A stretch of DNA of 64,000 bases. It comes from a virus. Made by a program: the position numbers and the translations under genes. Positions 18,443 through 33,090 of the stretch are shown here, one piece after another; positions within the stretch are counted from its first letter, which is position 1; every line of letters begins with the position of its first letter. The notes beneath the pieces were generated by a model that made no database searches, was not told the origin of the DNA, and worked only from the letters and a program-made list of their open reading frames with translations. The stretch spans positions 1 to 64,000 of the IMG/VR virus record IMGVR_UViG_3300007512_000009; one strand, given 5' to 3'.

Positions 18443-18580
18443 TTAGAATATTGTCAAGAGGAATCGTCCGATGACAACACCGATAAAAAAACCACCAACA
18501 ATAAACACCCCAGTTCCAATGCGTTCTCCCACACTACCTTCCATCCTTAATAATTTAATAATTCTGTTCCATCTCTTCAT
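18443..18580 (-). CDS. 45-aa membrane peptide (not in ORF track)
   Basis: MKRWNRIIKLLRMEGSVGERIGTGVFIVGGFFIGVVIGRFLLTIF. Fills the gap between the protease and RuvC-like genes. Confidence 0.6.
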   Translation of the reverse strand: MKRWNRIIKLLRMEGSVGERIGTGVFIVGGFFIGVVIGRFLLTIF

Positions 18581-19370
18581 TCAACATCTCCAATTCTATC
18601 CAATCTAGGTGTTTAGCAATAATAACTGCTGAACATTCCGTTATATCGTCAACACCTTTATAATTTTTCAGTACCGTAAACGTGCTTATAATCCCAACCA
18701 AGTATTTTTTACCTTCAAATCTGGTAAAAACCCCACCACCGCTATCACCAAACCAAACTGATATTGGTCTTGGGATAAATTTCATAGTATTTGGTTCTTC
18801 AACAATTGTACCGAAGTACCTGAACACTTTGTATTTACTGTATTTTTTATATCCAAAGGAGAAACCGACAGTTGTTATTGGGTCATACCTTTCCATCCAT
18901 TCAACACATCCAATTTTTGCGGGTTTGTATTTTGAATCACACTCTAAGAAAATAATACCAATATCATTTTTTACCCGCCCTAATGTATTGCTGTAATGGG
19001 GATGCAACACCATTTTCTTGACACCAATTTCTTCATCGTCACCAAACTTTACCGAGAAAATTGAATCATCGTCTATACAATGACCTGCCGTTAGAACTAC
19101 ATCAGGACGAATAAGAGTACCACTACCAATTAATCTTCCATCCGAGTCATGTAGACTACCTACAGACGGATAAGGGTCGTTGCCTTGAGTTACCCTGTTG
19201 AACCATTCTGATAGTGGGTCAACAAGAAGAACGGAATCAACAGGAGTAACAGTGTTGTTTATTTCTGGTGTGGGGACTGGGACTAAATCGGAGGATGAAT
19301 TTCTGCTAACACATCCTATTATTAATAAGCATAACAAAAGGACTGAGAAATATTTAGTTGTCCTAACCAT
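18555..19370 (-). CDS. Trypsin-like (S1) serine protease, lipoprotein
   Basis: Lipobox LIIG-C. Triad motifs VLTAGHC, NDIGII, GDSGGG. Confidence 0.9.
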   Translation of the reverse strand: MVRTTKYFSVLLLCLLIIGCVSRNSSSDLVPVPTPEINNTVTPVDSVLLVDPLSEWFNRVTQGNDPYPSVGSLHDSDGRLIGSGTLIRPDVVLTAGHCIDDDSIFSVKFGDDEEIGVKKMVLHPHYSNTLGRVKNDIGIIFLECDSKYKPAKIGCVEWMERYDPITTVGFSFGYKKYSKYKVFRYFGTIVEEPNTMKFIPRPISVWFGDSGGGVFTRFEGKKYLVGIISTFTVLKNYKGVDDITECSAVIIAKHLDWIELEMLNEEMEQNY

Positions 19371-19376
19371 ACGTAT

Positions 19377-19384
19377 TATTTATA
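19377..19384 (-). promoter_or_regulatory. T4-type late promoter (TATAAATA on minus strand)
   Basis: TATTTATA on the plus strand, 6 nt before the protease start codon. Confidence 0.7.
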
Positions 19385-19434
19385 AGCCGTGGCACCTTTA
19401 ATAACAATACTGAGTGAAGAGGAGAATATTCTCG

Positions 19435-20340
19435 TCAAGGACAAACGCTCTCATGAAGGCAGGTTAACTCGTCGACTTCGGTGGGATTCAATCTTCTCCC
19501 AACCACCCAAAAACATGTCTTTTCATTTTCGGTGTCAATGTTCTCTCTCATCCATCGATGTGCCTTCCCCTCATAGATGTCATCCAACGGAACATCTCCA
19601 ATATTTTCCCAAACAGATTTTGAGTACGCATGCTTGGTCAACACAATCTCATAATCATCAAATTCTGTTATCTCTTCTTCTGGAAAATTCTCGTATTTGA
19701 ATCTATCGAGATGCTTATTGATACTTTTAGTCCTATCACAAAAAGAAACACCCACAATGCGTTTTACCTTTTTATTGTACTTTTTAAGACCACGTATGAT
19801 ACCTGCAAATTGGATACCACTTCCCACTGGAATCACCAAATTATCTAATTCATCAGGTATGTTTGCAACTTGGTCGGTAACACCATCGAAAATCGCTTCT
19901 GGGTTGGACTCTAGAGAGATTGCAAATTTGATTAACTTGTATCCGTTATGTGCGATGATTTTCTTTTTAGCACCTGCATCAATAGCAGTGGTCATACCGT
20001 GTCCTGCTACAATGCGAATGTCCGCACCATAGAACTTACTCAACCGCATCATATGGTGGTTGTAAAGTGTTTCCTTTTTAGTACCACCGACAGCGATTAT
20101 GCATTTGAATCCGTGTTCCTGTGCAACCTTTGCGATGATAGCGGATTGGGGACTGTGCACACTGCTAGCAGTGACTACACCACCGTTGTGATTGTCCCTA
20201 ATGTCATCGTGGATTTCATCGAAAAGTTGTACCGCTTGACGTACCTTACCACCATTAACGTGAGTATCCCCAAAGGGTGTGTAAAGGTCATCACGTTTGT
20301 AGAAAATTTTATTATAATACTCGACAGGGGTAACGTCCAC
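19435..20340 (-). CDS. PLP-dependent enzyme, ACC deaminase/D-cysteine desulfhydrase-like (TrpB fold)
   Basis: YKRDDL...NGGKVRQ (PLP Lys), PVGSGIQFAG, LDDIYEGKA. Confidence 0.8.
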   Translation of the reverse strand: MDVTPVEYYNKIFYKRDDLYTPFGDTHVNGGKVRQAVQLFDEIHDDIRDNHNGGVVTASSVHSPQSAIIAKVAQEHGFKCIIAVGGTKKETLYNHHMMRLSKFYGADIRIVAGHGMTTAIDAGAKKKIIAHNGYKLIKFAISLESNPEAIFDGVTDQVANIPDELDNLVIPVGSGIQFAGIIRGLKKYNKKVKRIVGVSFCDRTKSINKHLDRFKYENFPEEEITEFDDYEIVLTKHAYSKSVWENIGDVPLDDIYEGKAHRWMRENIDTENEKTCFWVVGRRLNPTEVDELTCLHESVCP

Positions 20341-20644: not shown

Positions 20645-20673
20645 TTGACAGAAGCCTCTCGGCATGGTATAAT
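20645..20673 (+). promoter_or_regulatory. sigma70-type early promoter
   Basis: TTGACA-17 nt-TATAAT with extended -10 TG. Confidence 0.9.
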
Positions 20674-20720: not shown

Positions 20721-21926
20721 ATGACAGGTAAAACACTAAAACGAAAAAATGACTTCCTTGAAGCAATGCGTAATGCAGGTATGGGTTCAGAAGTAACTCG
20801 ACAAGACTTGCTCGACCTTTGTGCTTCAACAGGTATCTACAATGTAATCCCATCGTGGATAACTCATGACAAGACTCGTCGCACAAGTGATAGAAATGTC
20901 TTTGCAATGCATGAGTTGGGTTATGTTGCACAAACTCCTGAAGCGGTTGTTCCTGCCCCTGCCCCTGTGCAGGGTGCAGTTGAGCAACCTTCTTTAACTA
21001 CTGCGTCCATGATTATGGGTATGACTGGTGGTGAACGAGATACTCTCATTCCTGAAAAAATCAACACATATGTCCCATGGGGTAACTTCAAAGATGTTGC
21101 ACAAATCGTGAAAGCAAAGATTTTTTATCCTTGCTTCGTGACTGGTCTTTCAGGTAATGGTAAGACCACCATGATTGAGCAAGTATGTGCGAAAGCGAAG
21201 CGTGACTGCTATCGTGTGAATATCACTCGTCAAACTGACGAAGATGACCTACTAGGTGGATTCCGCCTAATCAACGGTAACACAGTGTGGCAAGACGGCC
21301 CAGTTGTTTCCGCTATGAAAAATGGTGGTGTTCTTCTTCTTGACGAAGTTGACCTTGCATCACATAACGTTATGTGCCTGCAACCTGTCCTTGAAGGTAA
21401 AGGTGTTTTCCTTAAGAAAATCGGTGAATGGGTAACACCTGCAGCCGGCTTCACAGTGTTCGCAACCGCAAATACCAAAGGTAAAGGTAGCGATGATGGT
21501 CGCTTCATCGGTACTAGCGTTATGAACGAAGCATTCCTTGACCGATTCCCTGTGACACTTGAGCAAGAATATGCTCCTCAAAACACTGAGGAAAAAATTC
21601 TTCGCAAAGCGATGGAATCAGTGGATATCGACGATAATGATTTCGCAAAGCACCTAACCAAATGGGCAGGTATCATCCGCAAGTCATTCTACGAAGGTGG
21701 AGTTGATGAAATAATCTCGACTCGTCGCCTCGTGGACATCGTGAAAGCACTCGCAATCTTTGGTGGTGATAAGCCCAAAGCACTCGCAATGTGCCTCGCT
21801 CGATTCGATGATGACACCAAGCAAGGTTTCATGGATTTATACGACAAGGTTGACGGTGATGTTGACCTTAACAATGTAGCAGACACCGACGCAACAGACG
21901 AGGATTCAAACTCATGCCCATTTTAA
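20721..21926 (+). CDS. MoxR/CobS-type AAA+ ATPase of T4-like phages
   Basis: Start moved to ATG at 20721 after AGGAGA. Walker A GLSGNGKT, Walker B LLLDEVD, ATANTKGKG, LDRF. Confidence 0.9.
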   Translation: MTGKTLKRKNDFLEAMRNAGMGSEVTRQDLLDLCASTGIYNVIPSWITHDKTRRTSDRNVFAMHELGYVAQTPEAVVPAPAPVQGAVEQPSLTTASMIMGMTGGERDTLIPEKINTYVPWGNFKDVAQIVKAKIFYPCFVTGLSGNGKTTMIEQVCAKAKRDCYRVNITRQTDEDDLLGGFRLINGNTVWQDGPVVSAMKNGGVLLLDEVDLASHNVMCLQPVLEGKGVFLKKIGEWVTPAAGFTVFATANTKGKGSDDGRFIGTSVMNEAFLDRFPVTLEQEYAPQNTEEKILRKAMESVDIDDNDFAKHLTKWAGIIRKSFYEGGVDEIISTRRLVDIVKALAIFGGDKPKALAMCLARFDDDTKQGFMDLYDKVDGDVDLNNVADTDATDEDSNSCPF

Positions 21927-22418: not shown

Positions 22419-22887
22419 AATAAAAACATTTAGAAAAACGTACAGACAATATATCAAGCCTTGTGTATTTGAAGGTTACAGACTCGCTGTCCTCTTTGAC
22501 GAAAAAGACACAGTTAAAAACCTTGGTGCTAGGTGGGATAAAGAAGAACAAATTTGGTGGATTCCAAAAGACAAGTTAAACAACAACGATGGTAGGGTTG
22601 GAACTGTTCATGAGTATTTGAATGCCAACAGCATGATTGTTGGTCAGTACGGTGCTAATGCAGATGCGGGATATATCGAACAAAATGGTACACCTAAAAT
22701 GTATTCCCTTATGCATAATGGTAATACGGTATCTGTTGCATGGTACGAAGAGTACGATGCAGTAAGATTCAACCGAGAAGGTATTGCTAGCGAATGGATG
22801 ACCATTGAAGAAGGTAGAAAATATTGGGATTCTCTAATACAAGGTGGATACAGCCGTATGTGGGGGACACACCCAAAAAATGTTTGA
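22405..22887 (+). CDS. DUF5710-like domain fused to a family-B module
   Basis: LAVLFDEKDTVKNLGARWDKEEQIWWIP; C-terminal GRKYWDSLIQGGY. Confidence 0.7.
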   Translation: MKTHEIKTFRKTYRQYIKPCVFEGYRLAVLFDEKDTVKNLGARWDKEEQIWWIPKDKLNNNDGRVGTVHEYLNANSMIVGQYGANADAGYIEQNGTPKMYSLMHNGNTVSVAWYEEYDAVRFNREGIASEWMTIEEGRKYWDSLIQGGYSRMWGTHPKNV

Positions 22888-22912
22888 CATACTACAGCCG
22901 TTGTGGTATAAT
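22884..22912 (+). promoter_or_regulatory. sigma70-type early promoter
   Basis: TTGACA-17-TATAAT; spacer contains AGCCGTT. Confidence 0.9.
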
Positions 22913-24644: not shown

Positions 24645-24887
24645 ATGTCTATATCTAATAAAAAGGGGAAAAACGACTGGAAAGAACCCGAAGATAAGAC
24701 TAAATGGCTTCTTGATTTGATTGAGGCAGGTGAGTCAGTGGTAAAAGGATATGAACAATACCTATTAAATAGGGTAGACCACATAGAGTTAGCAAAATTG
24801 ATGACAATGCTACATGATTTATTACCAATGTCTATTAATGACAATTATGATGATGATGGTAATGAAAAAAAGAAGAAGAATAGTTGA
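24645..24887 (+). CDS. Hypothetical protein
   Basis: 80 aa, GGAGAGG RBS. Confidence 0.65.
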   Translation: MSISNKKGKNDWKEPEDKTKWLLDLIEAGESVVKGYEQYLLNRVDHIELAKLMTMLHDLLPMSINDNYDDDGNEKKKKNS

Positions 24888-24912
24888 CATCTTAGAGCCG
24901 TTCTGGTATAAT
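24884..24912 (+). promoter_or_regulatory. sigma70-type early promoter
   Basis: TTGACA-17-TATAAT; spacer contains AGCCGTT. Confidence 0.9.
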
Positions 24913-25369: not shown

Positions 25370-25585
25370 ATGGCAAACCCCTACGAGTTACGATACGACA
25401 TTTACCAGAACGCAAGACAATCATTATCGGAAAAATTCTATAATGATTACGAAATTTGGAATAACTGGCAGTTTGATGAACAGGCAAAGGGTGAGTGTCC
25501 TATCAAGGAACGACCGTTAATGCCGACACACGAACAAGTTTTGGTAGAAGCAGAAAAAATTTACAGTTTTGTTCAACAAAAATAA
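25370..25585 (+). CDS. Conserved T4-like small protein
   Basis: MANPYELRYDIY...PTHEQVLVEAEKIYSFV; AAGGAG RBS. Confidence 0.8.
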   Translation: MANPYELRYDIYQNARQSLSEKFYNDYEIWNNWQFDEQAKGECPIKERPLMPTHEQVLVEAEKIYSFVQQK

Positions 25586-25612
25586 ATAGATTTTCTTTGA
25601 TAAGTGAATAAC

Positions 25613-25762
25613 CGTTCCTGTGGAAAAGCAGAGGCATTTTTAGACCCTAATACCCTATGCGGGTGTGATGGTGAAGATGATGTAAGATTCATTACCACTT
25701 TACACTGTGGGGCCTCGCAGTGGGAACGATAATTGATGAAAGACCCCTTGTACAAGGGGTCT
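25613..25762. ncRNA. Candidate structured non-coding RNA ending in a strong hairpin
   Basis: CGTTCC(25613)/GGAACG(25723) closing stem, internal CACTG/CAGTG stem, palindromic AGACCCCTTGTACAAGGGGTCT. Confidence 0.35.
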
Positions 25763-25770
25763 TCGTCTTA

Positions 25771-25778
25771 TATAAATA
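25771..25778 (+). promoter_or_regulatory. T4-type late promoter TATAAATA
   Basis: Exact octamer 4 nt before the ATG at 25783. Confidence 0.7.
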
Positions 25779-25782
25779 ATAT

Positions 25783-26049
25783 ATGGATAAAGTGTATGAA
25801 ATTGTTGAGGTTATTTGGGTTGATGCTGAAGAAATCGGTGAAACTGGGTGGAACAACCTAAAATCCCAAATCCGTGATGCTAAGAAACCTTGCCCTAAAA
25901 TGAAATCTGTAGGTTACCTAGTTTATCAAAATGATAAACATATATCTCTATTATCCACCGTGGGAAAAGATTTAGCATCTACTTTAGAAAAAATACCCTC
26001 AGGGTTTATAATTGAAATTAACAAGTTAACCAAGGTTGAAAAAAAATAA
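25783..26049 (+). CDS. Small phage hypothetical protein
   Basis: VEVIWVDA...GW...SVGYLV...KIPSGFI. Confidence 0.75.
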   Translation: MDKVYEIVEVIWVDAEEIGETGWNNLKSQIRDAKKPCPKMKSVGYLVYQNDKHISLLSTVGKDLASTLEKIPSGFIIEINKLTKVEKK

Positions 26050-26052
26050 AAA

Positions 26053-26343
26053 ATGATTTACGAATATAAATGCCGTGAATGTGAAGAAATATGGGAAGAA
26101 ATTCTTCCTATGTCGAAGTTCGACAAGCCCATGAAAAATAAATGTCCACACTGCGATGCTAAAAAAGGTAGCGTTTACAGATACGTAAGTACTGCACCCG
26201 CAATGCAAATGGATATGCAAATGGACATCAAAAAACCACATAATATGGGTGGATTCCAAGATGCAATGCAACGAATGGTGGAGTCGCCTGGCGTAAAAGG
26301 TACACCAGAGGCAGAACTACTTAAAGGTAAACATCTGAGTTGA
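26053..26343 (+). CDS. FmdB-like zinc-ribbon protein
   Basis: MIYEYKCREC...CPHC. Confidence 0.8.
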   Translation: MIYEYKCRECEEIWEEILPMSKFDKPMKNKCPHCDAKKGSVYRYVSTAPAMQMDMQMDIKKPHNMGGFQDAMQRMVESPGVKGTPEAELLKGKHLS

Positions 26344-26368
26344 CAACCGAAAGCCCGTAGTGTATAAT
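26340..26368 (+). promoter_or_regulatory. sigma70-type early promoter for purZ-kinase
   Basis: TTGACA-17-TATAAT with TG extension, 37 nt upstream of purZ. Confidence 0.9.
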
Positions 26369-26405
26369 AATATTACAAACGAACTCTAATTAGAAAAGGA
26401 AGTAT

Positions 26406-27497
26406 ATGATGATTGAAAATGGTAAGGTAAACTTTTTGATTGATGGACAATGGGGAAGCACTGGTAAAGGTAAACTAGCAGGTTATCTTTATAGTAAACA
26501 TCCAGAACTGACAATGGCAATAAGTGATAATATGCCTAATGCAGGACATACTTTTACAAGAGATGGAAAGAACTTCATTTTTAAAGCACTACCTACTGGT
26601 GTTCTATTTGACGGAGTGACATCGCTAATCGGACCACAATCAGTTATTGGTGAAGAACAATTTCAATACGAAATGGAAATGGTAAAAAATGAAATTGGTC
26701 ATTACCCGAAAATCATAATTCACCCGATGGCATGCGTTGTCACAGCAAGTGATAAAGATGCGGAAGCAGAAATCGTCAGCAAAATGGCAAGCACTGGACA
26801 AGGTTCGTGTGCAGCCACTGTTAAGAAAATGTGGAGAGCGGGCGAAGCAAACCTTGCTAAAAACAGCAAAATCTTAGAACCTTTCGTGGGTGATACACAT
26901 GAATTTTTACAAGAAAATTTAAAGAATGGTGGAACAGCACTTTCAGAAGGAAGTCAAGGTTTTGACCTTTCAATGAATTGCGGTCATTCTTATCCCCATA
27001 CAACATCTCGTGATTGTCTTATCGGTCGAATGATGGACAACGCAGGTTGTTCGGTCAAATCAGTTGGTAGTATCATTGCTTGTCTTCGAACTCTGCCTAT
27101 TCGTGTAGGTAGCACAGAAAATACCAGTGGCCCCTACTACGATGACCAAGTTGAACTAAATTGGGGTGATGTTTCAAATATGTGTGGGTATGATGTTGAA
27201 GAAAAAACAACAGTGACTCAAAGAATCCGTCGTGTGTTTACAATGTCGGAACAGCAAACACGCAAATTCTGTGAGTACGTGCGACCAGACTATGCATTTT
27301 TGAATTTCGTTAATTACTATGATGAACCAATGGACAGACTAGATGCAATAAATGATGTAGCAAGCATTTTGAATGAATACGGATGTGATTTAACACTACT
27401 TGGTACTGGTGCTGAACTCGATGCAATGGAAATGACTGACAATGCAACCATATCTACACAACATACAGAATTGTTAAAAAATACTCAATGTTTATGA
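26406..27497 (+). CDS. purZ: PurZ-type N6-succino-2-amino-2'-deoxyadenylate synthase (PurA paralogue)
   Basis: IDGQWGSTGKGK (Ser in place of the PurA catalytic Asp), PNAGHT, EGSQG, TTSRDC, GPYYDDQVELNW, TTVTQRIRRVF, FLNFVNY in place of TKLD. Confidence 0.85.
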   Translation: MMIENGKVNFLIDGQWGSTGKGKLAGYLYSKHPELTMAISDNMPNAGHTFTRDGKNFIFKALPTGVLFDGVTSLIGPQSVIGEEQFQYEMEMVKNEIGHYPKIIIHPMACVVTASDKDAEAEIVSKMASTGQGSCAATVKKMWRAGEANLAKNSKILEPFVGDTHEFLQENLKNGGTALSEGSQGFDLSMNCGHSYPHTTSRDCLIGRMMDNAGCSVKSVGSIIACLRTLPIRVGSTENTSGPYYDDQVELNWGDVSNMCGYDVEEKTTVTQRIRRVFTMSEQQTRKFCEYVRPDYAFLNFVNYYDEPMDRLDAINDVASILNEYGCDLTLLGTGAELDAMEMTDNATISTQHTELLKNTQCL

Positions 27498-28078
27498 GTA
27501 ATAACACAATAATTCATTGCGTAATAGGGCAAGCAGGCTCTGGTAAATCAACTTTTATACTCCAAAATTTTCCATCGGAAGAACACATTTTTTACAACGT
27601 GGGTTCTATCCTAAGAAAGATGTTCGGTGCCAGCATTGGCAAGAAACAAGATGGTAATAAAAACACGTGGGATTTTGCAGACCCTTTAGTTTATAACGTG
27701 TTTGACCATTGTCATCATATATCAAGAACTCATAATGTACCAATGGTTTCTGATGGGTTTCCGAGAAATATTAATCAACTGGACTATATAGACAAAGTGC
27801 TTAGAGTCGCTGAATATGGTAAAGTTGAAATAAACTTTCATTTATTAGATATCAGTGAAAAAGAGCAGGTACGTAGAATATTGGAAAGAAATGGTCAACT
27901 TGACCAGTACCATATAGAAAGGATTGCTGAATCACGACATAACTTTGAATGCGTTATAGAACGTCTTGAAGGTATCCTTCTTGGTGAAACCGAAAACCTT
28001 GTCTACAACTTAAACTGGTATAAACAAGAAAACGGTTCATTTCAAAAAATTAGTACAGTTAAGCATTCTAGAATATAA
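27488..28078 (+). CDS. Adenylate-kinase-like nucleoside monophosphate kinase
   Basis: P-loop GQAGSGKST, NVGSILR, DGFPRNINQ, RRILER. Overlaps the end of purZ by 10 nt. Confidence 0.85.
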   Translation: MFMSNNTIIHCVIGQAGSGKSTFILQNFPSEEHIFYNVGSILRKMFGASIGKKQDGNKNTWDFADPLVYNVFDHCHHISRTHNVPMVSDGFPRNINQLDYIDKVLRVAEYGKVEINFHLLDISEKEQVRRILERNGQLDQYHIERIAESRHNFECVIERLEGILLGETENLVYNLNWYKQENGSFQKISTVKHSRI

Positions 28079-28081
28079 ATA
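28074..28081 (+). promoter_or_regulatory. T4-type late promoter TATAAATA
   Basis: Exact octamer upstream of 28089. Confidence 0.7.
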
Positions 28082-28088
28082 ATACGTT

Positions 28089-28646
28089 ATGGCAGATTTT
28101 AGTATTAACATCCCAGACGAATATTTAGATGGTTCTGAAGACTTCGGTTTCACTACTATAGATTCTAATGAATTTGAACAAGCCGAGGCAGTAGAAAGAG
28201 AAATTACTGCTGATGTCGCTGAAGAATTAACATCGGGTCTTGTATCAAAAATAACAGGTCTTGAAGGAAAGATTAATGCGGTTCTTTTAAGGCTTAATGA
28301 TTCGACTCAAGACGATGACGATTTGATTCAATCTATTGATATGGTACGTATTGAAGAAAAAATTGATAAAATCCTCTCTATGGAAAACACGGAGATGATG
28401 TCTGCTCTAAACCAACAAGGAGAGAACATCCGTGCAGTTATTGATGAAGTAGAGGAAAGGAAAAACTTATTAGACGACCAATATAAAAAGAAATTATCAG
28501 AGGTCGAAAAAACGGTTATGCCTCTATTAATCAATCTAACTAAAAACCCAGAACGAGAGTATTTAAAGTGGCCCGACCGAGCGTCAAAGGTAAGGGGTTA
28601 TATACAAAGAGTATTAACACTCACAAGAGGAGATGAAAGTACTTGA
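28089..28646 (+). CDS. Conserved T4-like coiled-coil hypothetical protein
   Basis: DFGFT N-terminus and PLLINLTKNPEREYLKWPDR C-terminus. Confidence 0.75.
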   Translation: MADFSINIPDEYLDGSEDFGFTTIDSNEFEQAEAVEREITADVAEELTSGLVSKITGLEGKINAVLLRLNDSTQDDDDLIQSIDMVRIEEKIDKILSMENTEMMSALNQQGENIRAVIDEVEERKNLLDDQYKKKLSEVEKTVMPLLINLTKNPEREYLKWPDRASKVRGYIQRVLTLTRGDEST

Positions 28647-28688
28647 CAAAATTTGTGACAGTGAACTTTTTAGGATTATTTTTATATT

Positions 28689-29372
28689 ATGAAAACAAAA
28701 CAAAACTTTAACCATATCGGTCTAGCCGACTCGATTATCGAATTAGATACCACATATCGTAACAATAAACGATGGTATAAAATACCAAATGGGGAACTCT
28801 ACCCCAGTGTCACAACCGTTACTGGTTGGGGAAAAAGAGCATTTTTTGCTGAGTGGCGAAGAAAAAACCCAGAAGAATCAAAATTATCGCTATCAAGAGG
28901 TACTGCTTTTCACTCTCTAGTTGAAAACTACCTTAACAACGACGAAGATTTTTTAAAAGGTCAATCTTCCGATTGTATGTTTTTGTTTGAGCAATTTAAA
29001 TCATTACTGGATGGAAAAATTAGTAATATCCGTGCACAAGAAGTGCCATTGTATAGTAATACATTAAGGTTAGCCGGCAGGGTAGACTGTGTTGCAGATT
29101 ATGATGGTACTTTAAGCATTATCGACTTTAAAACTAGTAAAGCAGAGAAAAAAGAAGAATGGGTTGAAAGTTATTTCGCTCAAGCAACTGCTTATGCTAT
29201 TATGTGGAAAGAAATGACTGGTGAAACAATAGACCAAATTGTTATTTTGATATCATCTATGGACGGTTCAAGTCAAGAATTTGTTAAAAAACCTGTTAAG
29301 TACGTACCCGTCTTAAAAAAGATGATAGATGGGTATTGGAAAGACAACATACCACACGATTTTAGTTATTAA
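28689..29372 (+). CDS. PD-(D/E)xK (RecB/Cas4-like) exonuclease
   Basis: YPSVTTV, RGTAFH, AGRVDC, IIDFKTS, QATAYA. Confidence 0.9.
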   Translation: MKTKQNFNHIGLADSIIELDTTYRNNKRWYKIPNGELYPSVTTVTGWGKRAFFAEWRRKNPEESKLSLSRGTAFHSLVENYLNNDEDFLKGQSSDCMFLFEQFKSLLDGKISNIRAQEVPLYSNTLRLAGRVDCVADYDGTLSIIDFKTSKAEKKEEWVESYFAQATAYAIMWKEMTGETIDQIVILISSMDGSSQEFVKKPVKYVPVLKKMIDGYWKDNIPHDFSY

Positions 29373-30985
29373 GGTGATGTTTTCCTCATATAGGTTACAT
29401 CTATTCTTGGCCTCCAATCTATTATATTTGCATCTTTAGAAAAGTATTTGCATTGATTAATCCAATATACAAAATAAGTTGGTAATTCATCGGCTGGAAC
29501 ATTCGGCCAATCAAACTCGGCAGTAAGGCCATTGGTATCGTAAGGATAATATAACATCAGTCTGCAATCGCCTGTCCTGTTAGTCATAGCATCAGTCACC
29601 AAATCAGTAACGTTAATATGATATTGCGTTCCTTGCTCTACATCAAATAATTGAGAATATGTTGCTCCATTGGCGATTGGGAACTCTAAATCTGATGTGT
29701 CTTTGACATCAGTTGTTCCAACTGAACTACCTCCACTTGCTCCCCAATAACTGGCACTTCCAGCATGTCCGCCAGTAAAGTCCGTTACATCAACTATGTT
29801 CACGCCTGATGCACTGGCCAGTGCATCACTAACATTACCATCATTGCCTGCATTATCCATTGTAAGTGTAATTTTAGTACCACTTGAACCTTGTTTTGCA
29901 GTAATACCCAAGTCGTGGCCTGATTGACCATTTCCCTCCGAGGCATATATGAAGCGACCAGCGACCACCCCATTAATAGCATTGATAATAAAATCTGCCA
30001 CCATGTCATCGTTTTCAGATGCGTCAAGGGTGCCAATTGTGATTGTGTTAGGAGCGGCCGTTGCTTGATTGATATCATCTTTGTCTTCATCAAGTAAAAT
30101 TGTAACAGCCGTGCCACCTAAACCACCCGCAGAGGTTGGTATCGATATCGTAAACGAAGCGTCCGCATCGCTGGTGGTGTAGCCAGTTGTATCAATCGCA
30201 TCCACTGCAGTTGCAAGTCTATCTCCACCTTTATAAGACCACCATCCTGTATTTTCCATTGAACCTGCTGTATAACCGTTTGATGCACCGTCTGCACTAG
30301 ACCCTCTAGTAACTCTGGCAACTCTTATAGTAACATCTCCTTGAGCAAGATGTGATGGTACAACTGGCGGATGGTTTCCATCAGTCTGTTGGAATATCCC
30401 ACTAGCATCAGCATCTCGGGCATGTGTTTGTACTGAATCTACCGTTAATACTAATGTTGCTCGAACGACAGTATCACCAGTAGTAATACCATCAATAGTA
30501 ACCCCACCCGATGGGAATGGTGAGGGATTCCCCCAATCGGAAGATTTGAAATACATTGTGCCTCTTTTTGCGGGTGTTGATAACCATCCGTCCCTCCAAA
30601 CACCAACACCACCACCGGCTAGAGAATCTTCATGGTTGAAACCATAAGAAAAATCTGTAGACTGCACGTTGTTGTGACTGCCAGTCCAGATATGAGTAAA
30701 GGCTGAACCTATTGTAAAATAACCGTCGGAACTTGACCCAGCGTATAAATGATGTATGTCTTGGTCGTACAGGTACGTTGCACTGGTAGTACCTGTACCG
30801 CCCAAACCAGAACCATGGTCTGTATATGTTGCACCAAGGTCACCCCTGACATCGTATAGTGTCATGTCTTCTGTTGGATACCATCTTGATAAAAGTAAGG
30901 TCGGGTTGGGCGTATCAATATCAGTGAATCCTATATCAGCATCTTGATGTCTTAAGGCTGTTAATCTATGTCTTGCAAGTGTCAT
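29369..30985 (-). CDS. Putative virion-associated protein, Gly/Thr/Ser-rich, with beta-sandwich (DNRLRE-like) termini
   Basis: 538 aa. C-terminal YFSKD...RPRIDVTY; central insert ending FTGG. Confidence 0.6.
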   Translation of the reverse strand: MTLARHRLTALRHQDADIGFTDIDTPNPTLLLSRWYPTEDMTLYDVRGDLGATYTDHGSGLGGTGTTSATYLYDQDIHHLYAGSSSDGYFTIGSAFTHIWTGSHNNVQSTDFSYGFNHEDSLAGGGVGVWRDGWLSTPAKRGTMYFKSSDWGNPSPFPSGGVTIDGITTGDTVVRATLVLTVDSVQTHARDADASGIFQQTDGNHPPVVPSHLAQGDVTIRVARVTRGSSADGASNGYTAGSMENTGWWSYKGGDRLATAVDAIDTTGYTTSDADASFTISIPTSAGGLGGTAVTILLDEDKDDINQATAAPNTITIGTLDASENDDMVADFIINAINGVVAGRFIYASEGNGQSGHDLGITAKQGSSGTKITLTMDNAGNDGNVSDALASASGVNIVDVTDFTGGHAGSASYWGASGGSSVGTTDVKDTSDLEFPIANGATYSQLFDVEQGTQYHINVTDLVTDAMTNRTGDCRLMLYYPYDTNGLTAEFDWPNVPADELPTYFVYWINQCKYFSKDANIIDWRPRIDVTYMRKTSP

Positions 30986-30994
30986 TTTTAATTA

Positions 30995-31777
30995 TTATGA
31001 ACCACAAATTCTGATATCAGCAGTTCCTGTACCATCAATTACTACTCGTAGTCCTTCTGGTTTTGATGCTTCAATGAATATTGTTCCAAATTTAAGTAGT
31101 GGGAATCCATGCGCCAAAGCACCGCTTCCTGCTGTTAAACTGGTTGCTGCCGTTGCTCCAATATAAACATCTGAAGGCCCCAAATTTGTAACTCTGAATC
31201 CTGTGGTGAATGTACCTGCGGGAAGGGTTGTTCGTGCTAGGTCTGAGGTTTGGTCGATTGTAACGCCCCCTGAGGTAAATCCGTAAGAGGGGATAGCAAC
31301 AGTAAGAACATCAACATCACCGATGTTATTTGTGCTGGCTGCCAGTTTAACATCACCTGTTATTTGTGCAGTAATACCAAGAAGACCATTAGAAGCAACA
31401 CAAACTGTAGCACCGACACCAAAACCTTTAACTGTACTAATGTAATCTAAAGTACCACCTACGATTTTATCCACAGTACCACCATGTAATGTGACACCAG
31501 CAATACTTAGAGATGCACCACCACAAATTTCGATTGGTACTGCTAAAGTACCTGATGTGTTACCTGCACACGGTACGAATGTTTGACTTGGTGCATTGGT
31601 ATATGCGATAGGCAGTGGTGCGGTATTTGTTAATATAGAGTCTACACCATCACCTCCAACATTAATTTTAACTTCCTGCCAATGTCCAACATTGTCCCCA
31701 CCATAATCAGTGGCAAAGGTAGCCCCCGAAGGGTCGGTTGATGTAAGTTGAACGTTATCAGATGTTATTTGAGCCAT
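30995..31777 (-). CDS. Putative virion structural protein
   Basis: 260 aa, Gly/Thr/Ala-rich, beta-strand character. Confidence 0.6.
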   Translation of the reverse strand: MAQITSDNVQLTSTDPSGATFATDYGGDNVGHWQEVKINVGGDGVDSILTNTAPLPIAYTNAPSQTFVPCAGNTSGTLAVPIEICGGASLSIAGVTLHGGTVDKIVGGTLDYISTVKGFGVGATVCVASNGLLGITAQITGDVKLAASTNNIGDVDVLTVAIPSYGFTSGGVTIDQTSDLARTTLPAGTFTTGFRVTNLGPSDVYIGATAATSLTAGSGALAHGFPLLKFGTIFIEASKPEGLRVVIDGTGTADIRICGS

Positions 31778-32181: not shown

Positions 32182-33090
32182 ATGAGTTTTAGCAAGATGA
32201 AAAAGTCCACAGGAAACACTAGCAATCTGATGGACGAACTAAACAAAATCTCTTCAGGTAGTGGTAAGAAAGACTACAATGACGAGAGATTTTGGAAACC
32301 AACACGTGATAAATCAGACAATGGATACGCAGTTATCCGATTTCTTCCACCTGTAGATGGTGAGGATGTACCATGGGTTCGTGTCTTTAATCATGGGTTT
32401 AAAGGTAAAGGTGGATGGTTGATTGATAATTGTCCTACAACTATTGGTAAGAAATGTCCTGTTTGTGAAGCAAATAATGCATTATGGAACAGTGGTCTTG
32501 AATCAGACAAAGACATTGCTCGTAACCGTAAGCGAAAATTACAATACATTTCAAATATCGTGGTTGTTGAAGATTCAAAAAATCCTGATGCAGAAGGTAA
32601 AGTGTTTTTATATAAATTCGGTAAGAAGATTTTTGATAAGATTCAAGAAGTTCTTCAACCAGAGTTTGAAGATGAAGACCCAATGAACCCATTCGATTTC
32701 TGGAAAGGTGCAAATTTTAAAATTAAAATACGCAAAGTCGGTGGATTTGTGAATTATGATAAAAGCGAATTCACTACGCCAACTGCTTTTGCAGATGGTG
32801 ATGATGGAGCACTAGAAATAATCTGGAAAAAACAATATAAGTTGCAAGAATTTATTGGTGATGACCAGTTCAAATCGTATGATGAATTGAAATCACGGAT
32901 GGACATGGTTCTTGGTGGTGGTGGTGTTGCTACATCTGCTGTGGAAGTGTCTGAAAAGAAAGATATCCCATATCCAAAGAGTAATCCATTTGGTGAACCG
33001 AAAGCGGAAGAAAAAGCGGAAGAAGTAAGCGATAGTGAAGAAGGTGAAGATGCATTAGCCTACTTTGAAAGACTCGCTAACGAAGATTAA
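32182..33090 (+). CDS. gp32: Single-stranded DNA-binding protein
   Basis: DERFWKP..DKSDNGYAVIRFLP, CPTTIGKKCPVCE, FDFWKGANFKIK, acidic tail ending ALAYFERLA. Confidence 0.97.
   Translation: MSFSKMKKSTGNTSNLMDELNKISSGSGKKDYNDERFWKPTRDKSDNGYAVIRFLPPVDGEDVPWVRVFNHGFKGKGGWLIDNCPTTIGKKCPVCEANNALWNSGLESDKDIARNRKRKLQYISNIVVVEDSKNPDAEGKVFLYKFGKKIFDKIQEVLQPEFEDEDPMNPFDFWKGANFKIKIRKVGGFVNYDKSEFTTPTAFADGDDGALEIIWKKQYKLQEFIGDDQFKSYDELKSRMDMVLGGGGVATSAVEVSEKKDIPYPKSNPFGEPKAEEKAEEVSDSEEGEDALAYFERLANED

Follow-up and report, generated by a model that had tools for sequence, protein, structure and literature searches.

A PurZ-type synthetase in a T4-like phage

Does a T4-like phage make the base 2-aminoadenine (Z), and does it build it into its DNA in place of adenine? 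The question is raised by a purZ-type gene at positions 26406..27497 (+ strand) of a 64,000-nucleotide stretch of viral DNA, the window (positions 1 to 64,000 of the IMG/VR record IMGVR_UViG_3300007512_000009), in which a sequence-only reading had recognised PurZ, the synthetase of the Z precursor, in a T4-like myovirus. Here, I show that the protein is of the PurZ type, being neither a PurA nor a PurZ0, and that its gene is translationally coupled to a nucleoside monophosphate (NMP) kinase; it is likely that the phage synthesizes the deoxynucleoside monophosphate of Z (dZMP), and a probability of about 0.6 is given to the reading that Z is a substantial component of its virion DNA.

The gene encodes 363 amino acids (aa) with the PurA fold and carries DGQWGSTGKG (Ser18 standing at the position of the PurA Asp), AFLNFVNYY, HTTSRDC and SGPYYDDQVELNW; the motifs from which the sequence-only reading had argued, namely QWGSTGKG, FLNFVNY, TTSRDC and GPYYDDQVELNW, are all found in this frame. 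The protein matches the adenylosuccinate synthetase family of Pfam (PF00709, 3.6e-28) and PHROG 1211 (2.8e-60), and its best NCBIfam family is PurZ (NF038379, 208.9 bits), ahead of archaeal-type PurA (NF003295, 139.9 bits). In a phmmer search of the PDB the PurZ of phage phiVC8 ranks first (3.6e-52, residues 7-345), followed by S-2L PurZ (6.9e-31), Pyrococcus PurA (1.5e-25) and PurZ0 (7VF6, 4.5e-20); the same order is returned by fold comparison of an AlphaFold model (predicted local distance difference test, pLDDT, 84.8), with phiVC8 DgsS/PurZ 6TNH on top (template modelling score, TM, 0.81/0.86).

The fold is shared with phiVC8 PurZ/DgsS (6FKO/6FM1/6TNH) and S-2L PurZ (7ODX) at TM 0.80-0.86, and identity over nearly the full length is 36-37% to the former and 29% to the latter; common to the three proteins are the GSTGKG P-loop (Ser for the PurA Asp), FLNFxNY, TTVT and conserved W/Y positions. 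The archaeal-type PurA of Pyrococcus horikoshii (5K7X) has the short PurA fold of ~340 aa in common with the phage protein (TM 0.80/0.85), but is 25% identical to it and keeps the catalytic Asp. The PurZ signature residues, whose roles in PurZ as opposed to PurA are described in bioRxiv 10.1101/2025.10.22.683976, are retained (phiVC8 numbering in brackets): W16 (F12), S18 (S14), T268 (T262), F301 (F295) and Y304 (Y298), as are W253, Y245 and P231, and the same set is found in ~116 metagenomic homologues. The lone departure from that preprint's list of PurZ-over-PurA residues is Trp for F12, in the protein and the ~116 homologues alike; S-2L has Tyr there. The Ser at the position of the PurA catalytic Asp13, in the GSTGKG P-loop, is invariant among 116 homologues, and an ATP-type donor pocket is present (F301 and Y304 in FLNFVNY), the TKLD by which PurA recognises guanine being absent.

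A quick maximum-likelihood tree was rooted on E. coli PurA; it includes three sequences from metagenome-assembled genomes and leaves out archaeal PurA. PurZ0, which has GSEAKG where the phage protein has GSTGKG, forms a distinct clade and splits first. In this tree the phage protein groups with PurZ, away from PurZ0 and PurA (SH-aLRT, the Shimodaira-Hasegawa-like approximate likelihood ratio test, 98, no archaeal PurA being included). The characterised PurZs and the three metagenomic sequences are sister to a large unnamed clade (SH-aLRT 95), within which the phage protein belongs to a tight T4-like subclade (SH-aLRT 97-99). The assignment to PurZ is supported by profile (hidden Markov model) ranking, signature residues, tree and fold, and the enzyme is predicted with high confidence to have PurZ chemistry.

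The carrier phage

The source record (G0, G000 in coordinates) is an IMG/VR contig of 126,210 bp that includes the window and the pieces L001-L004; its G+C content is 36.5% (63.5% A+T). Two 136-kb relatives, G1 (L020-L026) and G2 (L027-L033), are collinear with it, and each ends precisely at its own starting point in G0 coordinates. Since they close on themselves, the genomes of this lineage, of ~126-136 kb, are essentially complete, and the CheckV completeness of 70-75% is an underestimate for a T4-like lineage with small genomes.

The T4 core is present in conserved order, namely gp32, the late sigma factor gp55, gp43, gp41, gp61, UvsX, UvsW, gp45/44/62, gp46/47 and RegA, together with gp2, gp4, baseplate genes, sheath gp18, portal gp20, scaffold gp22 and major head gp23. 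The gene for the single-strand DNA-binding protein gp32 (window 32182..33090, +; phrog_224, 4.4e-111) is a marker of this backbone beside the purZ module, 52% identical in its product to gp32 of the Pelagibacter phage HTVC008M, and the polymerase is a gp43-type enzyme of family B (phrog_262, E=0; ~50% identity to cyanomyovirus gp43). HTVC008M is matched by 51 of the 152 open reading frames (ORFs) of G0, in shared order; the syntenic backbone includes gp32, gp55, gp47/46, gp45/44/62, RegA, gp43 (45%), UvsX, gp41, gp61, structural genes and an NMAD1/DUF1599 gene, the last being shared also by the Methylophilales phage Melnitz, like HTVC008M a small marine T4-like myovirus, as the sole gene compared. 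With gp32, gp55, the family-B gp43 and further replication and virion genes identified, the T4-like character first noticed from the sequence is confirmed: the phage is an uncultured marine, pelagimyophage-like T4-type myovirus. A megablast search of isolate phages, with 20 kb of the window as query, gave no match.

The purZ-kinase unit

Ahead of purZ lies a 12/12 match to a sigma-70-type, T4-early-like promoter, TTGACA-N17-TATAAT, at 26340..26368 (+), with TTGACA at 26340-26345 and TATAAT at 26363-26368; the -10 hexamer is 37 nt from the purZ ATG, and direct reading agrees in every respect with the perfect promoter described before. AAGGAAG, a ribosome-binding site, precedes the start codon. 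This putative promoter is the sole 12/12 match in 25500-31200, and upstream of purZ TTGAC and a -10-like box are retained in nine of nine related contigs. The window has four perfect matches, all on the + strand (20645, 22884, 24884, 26340) and within the small-ORF stretch at 20.6-26.4 kb; the chance expectation is 1.26 matches, with one mismatch permitted. The other three (20645-20673, 22884-22912, 24884-24912) have a TGG extended -10 and a common GCC..T..TGG spacer, and precede small early-type ORFs.

One may ask whether purZ is merely a passenger, recently acquired, decaying or silent, with no role in the phage, since in comparison with HTVC008M it is an inserted gene. The frame, though, is intact and is preceded by a promoter and a ribosome-binding site of its own; over nine related viral contigs, which differ by up to 30%, purZ is 70-91% identical and the flanking genes 42-60%, making it the best-conserved gene of its neighbourhood; and ~30 protein clusters at least 64% identical to its product come from many marine samples. 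Such an explanation deserves hardly any credence. Metagenomic relatives of the protein reach 92% identity, and the closest isolate-phage proteins stay below 40%. A PurZ-like match is found in 207 isolate-phage records, mostly of Arthrobacter, Vibrio, Microbacterium and Acinetobacter phages, none larger than 89 kb among the matches listed.

The stop of purZ is overlapped by 10 nt by the start of an adenylate-kinase-like NMP kinase gene (27488..28078, +; 196 aa), whose product is a candidate dZMP kinase. Its motifs are the P-loop GQAGSGKS, G..R and DGFPR..Q; it matches Pfam ADK (2.4e-4) and NCBIfam adk (6.5e-8), and its structural model (pLDDT 85) finds its closest folds among short-lid adenylate and UMP/CMP kinases. 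Against isolate phages no homologue was found, except in one 635-kb uncultured record.

Elsewhere in its PurZ clade, in distant members with unrelated backbones, a kinase is again the next gene or the next but two after purZ. A DGFPR-type kinase follows it in four loci, those of a 96-kb phage with a family-A polymerase (L016), a 262-kb jumbo phage (L018) and two family-A-polymerase contigs (L045 and L046); in the P0059 contig the kinase is of the ADK family (Pfam), and in a 466-kb contig (L044) it is of the dNK/AAA type, without DGFPR-type motifs. The pairing of purZ with a kinase predates the T4-like lineage. A dUTPase gene comes directly after the pair in L016, L046 and the P0059 contig, the last of which also has DUF4406. 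L016 holds both a PurA-like gene (GYGDEGKG, canonical-looking, on a very long branch) and a PurZ-clade gene with kinase and dUTPase (L016:898-2013 and L016:10001-11062).

The order of genes is the same in nine viral contigs: an 88-aa protein, a zinc ribbon, the promoter, purZ, the kinase, a 185-aa protein (closest relatives only) and a Cas4-like exonuclease. The first two are small conserved genes (25783..26343, +) upstream of the promoter, the second encoding a 96-aa FmdB-type zinc-ribbon protein (Zn_ribbon_8, 8.3e-9); they adjoin purZ in all relatives, and HTVC008M is without both. The acidic 185-aa protein (28089..28646, +), in the same transcription unit as purZ, has no Pfam, PHROG or NCBIfam match; it is confined to the closest relatives L006-L008 and has no counterpart in HTVC008M. 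The last gene of the unit, for a PD-(D/E)XK / Cas4-like exonuclease (28689..29372, +; PF12705 1.1e-10, phrog_298 3.6e-67), belongs to the backbone, its product being 45% identical to the gp193 exonuclease of HTVC008M.

Further purine genes

With the coupled kinase, and with a purB of the phage's own, purZ is not an orphan, neither gene having been tied to it in the sequence-only reading. The adenylosuccinate lyase PurB (G000 81372-82775, L001:17372-18772, +; 467 aa) scores 340.6 bits with TIGR00928, against a cut-off of 326.2, and is full-length; ADSL structures match it at 1e-116, the best PDB matches being eukaryote-type ADSL. Its gene sits as an insertion between gp47 and gp46, a place taken in HTVC008M by a 2-oxoglutarate-Fe(II) oxygenase, and is kept in G1 and G2. 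Isolate phages annotated as PurB-like comprise, among the matches listed, the Streptomyces Hiyaa group and the Microcystis phage MaAM05, with no T4-like marine isolate. Like the phage studied here, the Hiyaa group has its own adenylosuccinate-lyase homologue alongside a synthetase (as annotated), and Hiyaa and Galactica of that group show both PurB-like and PurA-like/PurZ matches; it differs in that the synthetase has GSEAKG (PurZ0-type), the PurB is ~25% identical, and the phages are 82-kb actinophages.

Two more genes of purine and nitrogen metabolism are kept in G1 and G2. One encodes the catalytic core of an IMP dehydrogenase (IMPDH; G000 124141-125202, L004:141-1199, +), which is without the CBS (Bateman) subdomain, scores 375.7 bits as IMPDH against 209 as GMP reductase, and is ~50% identical, in two blocks, to bacterial GuaB; isolate-phage records that match it mostly resemble bacterial guaB, with no T4-like isolate among the matches listed. 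The other encodes a GlnII-type glutamine synthetase (G000 112771-113844, L003:8771-9841, +; 402 bits, below the cut-off of 500). A ribonucleotide reductase is also encoded by G0. In comparison with HTVC008M, no counterpart was found of PurZ, the coupled kinase, PurB, IMPDH or GlnII, nor of the dUTPase (Dut) and DUF4406 proteins discussed below.

These genes admit another explanation, in which the purine pools are rebalanced and no Z enters the DNA, be it that a PurA-like route from IMP or dIMP boosts adenine or that Z nucleotides serve as transient or regulatory metabolites. What speaks against it is that the PurA catalytic Asp has become Ser in all ~116 homologues, that the guanine-recognising TKLD is absent, and that an IMPDH without CBS would drive flux to G rather than A. 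On its side are the 63.5% A+T of the genome, the presence of IMPDH, GlnII and ribonucleotide reductase, the lack of any adenine-exclusion gene of a known type, and the uncharacterised status of the clade, one member contig of which, L016, has a canonical GDEGKG PurA-like copy as well. On balance, rebalancing is regarded as improbable.

A predicted route to Z

From the gene content a route to Z in DNA can be drawn, in which the enzyme activities, the substrate of the kinase and the presence of Z in the virion are predictions. The purZ unit would be read early, from its host-type promoter. The PurZ-type synthetase would join aspartate to dGMP, using ATP; the phage PurB would then release dZMP from the succinylated product, and a further phosphate would be added by the coupled adenylate-kinase-like enzyme to give dZDP, so that every step between dGMP and dZDP seems to be encoded by the phage (PurZ, PurB, kinase). 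Host nucleoside diphosphate kinase would convert dZDP to dZTP, and the T4-type replisome with its family-B gp43 would insert Z opposite T in phage DNA.

Guanine supply would matter, because in a genome of 63.5% A+T the demand for Z would far exceed that for G. Two sources may be envisaged: the dNMPs from T4-style breakdown of host DNA, which would yield dGMP directly and might thereby make MazZ dispensable, and the IMPDH without CBS, which would draw IMP to GMP and away from AMP.

Adenine exclusion and the extent of replacement

Several observations weigh against a substantial share of Z in the virion DNA. To begin with the synthetase, its 208.9 bits miss the 300-bit cut-off of NF038379, which S-2L (349.8) and phiVC8 (397.2) pass, and on the tree the characterised PurZs all fall outside its own clade; of what phylogeny and profiles had been expected to decide, a grouping with PurZ rather than with PurA or PurZ0 is favoured, with the qualification that the protein represents a sister clade of the characterised enzymes and scores under the NCBI cut-off for PurZ.

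Along the same line, the classical helpers are missing. In G0-G2 there is no match for DatZ (PF01966, PF13023 or the S-2L protein), for MazZ (PF03819 or the S-2L protein), for HD_3 and NUDIX, or for a family-A polymerase (PF00476), and none for DUF550 (PF04447) in G0, the one genome searched; the genome-wide check that the sequence-only reading had proposed thus turned up neither an HD dATPase nor a MazG-like protein nor DUF550, and a polymerase of family B. The absence of helpers is real, because the ends of the two syntenic relatives abut, and it follows that nothing known would keep dATP out. Moreover, E. coli with purZ-mazZ-datZ alone attains 9-28% Z (PMC12944874).

Restriction sites belong to the same side of the balance. 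In G0, GATC (~402 expected), AGCT (236 expected) and CGCG (42 expected) are all at 0, and CCGG is found 29 times against 116 expected; G1 has 123 GATC against 582 expected, G2 has 0 CCGG against 152, and GGTACC occurs 3 times over G0-G2 against 83. Each of the three genomes shuns different sites, and heavy restriction pressure is answered by site loss. The phage still relies on avoiding A-containing sites, which argues against a blanket protection of its DNA. Nevertheless, dZ-DNA is cut by 47% of the 147 enzymes tested, BstYI (RGATCY) among them (PMC12944874), so that site avoidance is compatible with Z and neither proves nor refutes it.

Two proteins might take the place of the missing helpers. 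The first is Dut, a dUTPase of 198 aa (L003:1221-1814; PF00692 3e-20) with a ~45-aa insertion between motifs 1 and 2, whose gene and an overlapping 115-aa DUF1599/NMAD1 gene (together G000 105221-106161, L003:1221-2158, +) lie directly upstream of gp43. The second is a DUF4406/NDT-superfamily protein of 156 aa (G000 89134-89604, L002:5134-5601, +; PF14359 2.4e-20, NDT 2e-4), encoded between the gp45 clamp and gp44 clamp-loader genes; its DNPH1-like YxAGPMRG motif and conserved Glu make it a candidate dNMP N-hydrolase. A six-frame search with NDT (PF05014) was negative, yet hmmscan of the called protein returned DUF4406 and a weak NDT match, which means that the six-frame search was not fully sensitive. 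Both Dut and DUF4406 are kept in G0-G2, and by analogy with the PurZ0 phages, in which DutZ clears dATP and DmtZ dAMP (PMC12884076), the two could clear dATP and dAMP, as a candidate mechanism.

If they did so, replacement of A by Z could be complete, as in S-2L, with non-homologous helpers: Dut would hydrolyse dATP (and dGTP), the DUF4406/DNPH1-like protein would destroy dAMP, and the unregulated IMPDH would starve the AMP branch, in convergence with DutZ and DmtZ. In support of it, neither Dut nor DUF4406 has a counterpart in HTVC008M; DUF4406 keeps a Tyr and a Glu at the aligned positions of Tyr6 and Glu103, the catalytic residues of DmtZ (PMC12884076); a dUTPase directly follows the purZ-kinase pair in the three contigs named above, with DUF4406 in one of them; and the clearing of dATP and dAMP by DutZ and DmtZ has been demonstrated in PurZ0 phages. 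However, Dut has the canonical IDSDY in place of the ID[SA]GY variant, and is without the 2-residue deletion, that DutZ and purZ-adjacent Duts have in common; its closest isolate relatives are T4-like phages outside the PurZ matches; DUF4406 has Arg at Asp12 of DmtZ, the residue that specifies dAMP; and in G0 both genes are unlinked to purZ. DUF4406 relatives occur, besides, in 607 phage records, about three times those with a PurZ-like match, and for this reason most of their carriers cannot be Z phages. Complete replacement is accordingly held to be doubtful. Returning to the substantial share of Z favoured here, A is expected to be replaced substantially, possibly incompletely; the canonical motif and the relatives of Dut, as well as the abundance of DUF4406, count against this as well.

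Two identifications were considered and set aside. The phage Dut as a DutZ is unsupported, for the motif and the nearest relatives just given. The DUF1599/NMAD1 protein as a stand-in for MazZ was rejected as Z-specific, since very many marine metagenome homologues at 60-65% exist and it is found in HTVC008M and Melnitz, both outside the PurZ matches; the 115-aa protein had no sequence match in the PDB.

Comparison with known Z phages

Z phages described in papers are siphoviruses and podoviruses that depend on DatZ and MazZ or on DutZ and DmtZ; a family-A polymerase selective for Z is often present too (PMC8599892, PMC12884076). The synthetase studied here differs from those of phiVC8 and S-2L in its separate, large and uncharacterised sister clade and in having Trp at the position of F12 of phiVC8; it is accompanied by a kinase and PurB, whereas those of phiVC8 and S-2L go with DatZ and MazZ; and the phage that carries it, a T4-like myovirus, has a family-B polymerase, whereas theirs is a 40-kb podovirus or a siphovirus with DpoZ or PrimPol. 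The PurZ0 phages Arthrobacter Wayne and Gordonia Ghobes (PMC12884076) likewise have no DatZ or MazZ, and have dUTPase-family and NDT-superfamily proteins in the genome, a likeness consistent with helper sets that arose by convergence. Unlike them, the phage has no DpoZ, and its Dut and DUF4406, which are not linked to purZ, show ~27% identity to DutZ and DmtZ, or no detectable similarity, and are without their distinguishing residues.

Seven gene-sharing groups of Z phages have been recognised among NCBI viruses, and in one paper more than 2000 viruses are predicted to have Z by PurZ homology; the contigs discussed here may be counted, uncommented, among the latter. A literature search found no paper combining PurZ with T4-like phages or myoviruses. 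As none was met in that literature nor among the isolate-phage matches listed, the T4-like context for Z genes appears to be new, in line with the sequence-only reading; new as well are the purZ-kinase coupling and the phage's own PurB, IMPDH without CBS, GlnII, Dut and DUF4406.

A bolder proposal, put forward tentatively and judged rather unlikely as a whole, is that small marine T4-like phages of a widespread lineage, kin to the myophages of SAR11 and OM43, replicate an AT-rich genome fully or largely substituted with Z by means of an ordinary family-B gp43 replisome and a third Z toolkit. The latter would combine a PurZ of a new clade, firmly tied to a dZMP kinase of its own, with the PurB of the phage, an IMPDH free of regulation, and adenine clearance by non-homologous means, namely Dut and a DNPH1-like hydrolase; wherever this purZ-kinase module turns up in jumbo phages or in phages with a family-A polymerase, it would be a sign of Z-DNA. 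Should these abundant marine T4-like phages use Z at all, the modification would extend to a major lineage of ocean phages, a family-B T4 replisome would be able to copy Z-DNA, and a third helper logic would exist, in which the phage supplies a lyase and a kinase in place of a dATPase. The conserved purZ-kinase pair offers a simple marker by which such phages can be sought, and the candidate dZMP kinase could be of use in engineering Z-DNA in cells, where the known genes give incomplete yields (PMC12944874).

Other genes of the record

A 532-aa protein (L002:570-2165, G000 84570-86168, +) is kept in G1 and G2 and has no counterpart in HTVC008M; its C-terminal part alone is weakly like a DNA methyltransferase PHROG. 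Just upstream of the early region (window 18555-20052, -, and 20721-21926, +) lie genes for a trypsin-like protease, a fragment of 205 aa resembling enzymes dependent on pyridoxal phosphate (PALP, below cut-off) and a CobS/MoxR-type AAA ATPase, the last being 54% identical to CobS of HTVC008M.

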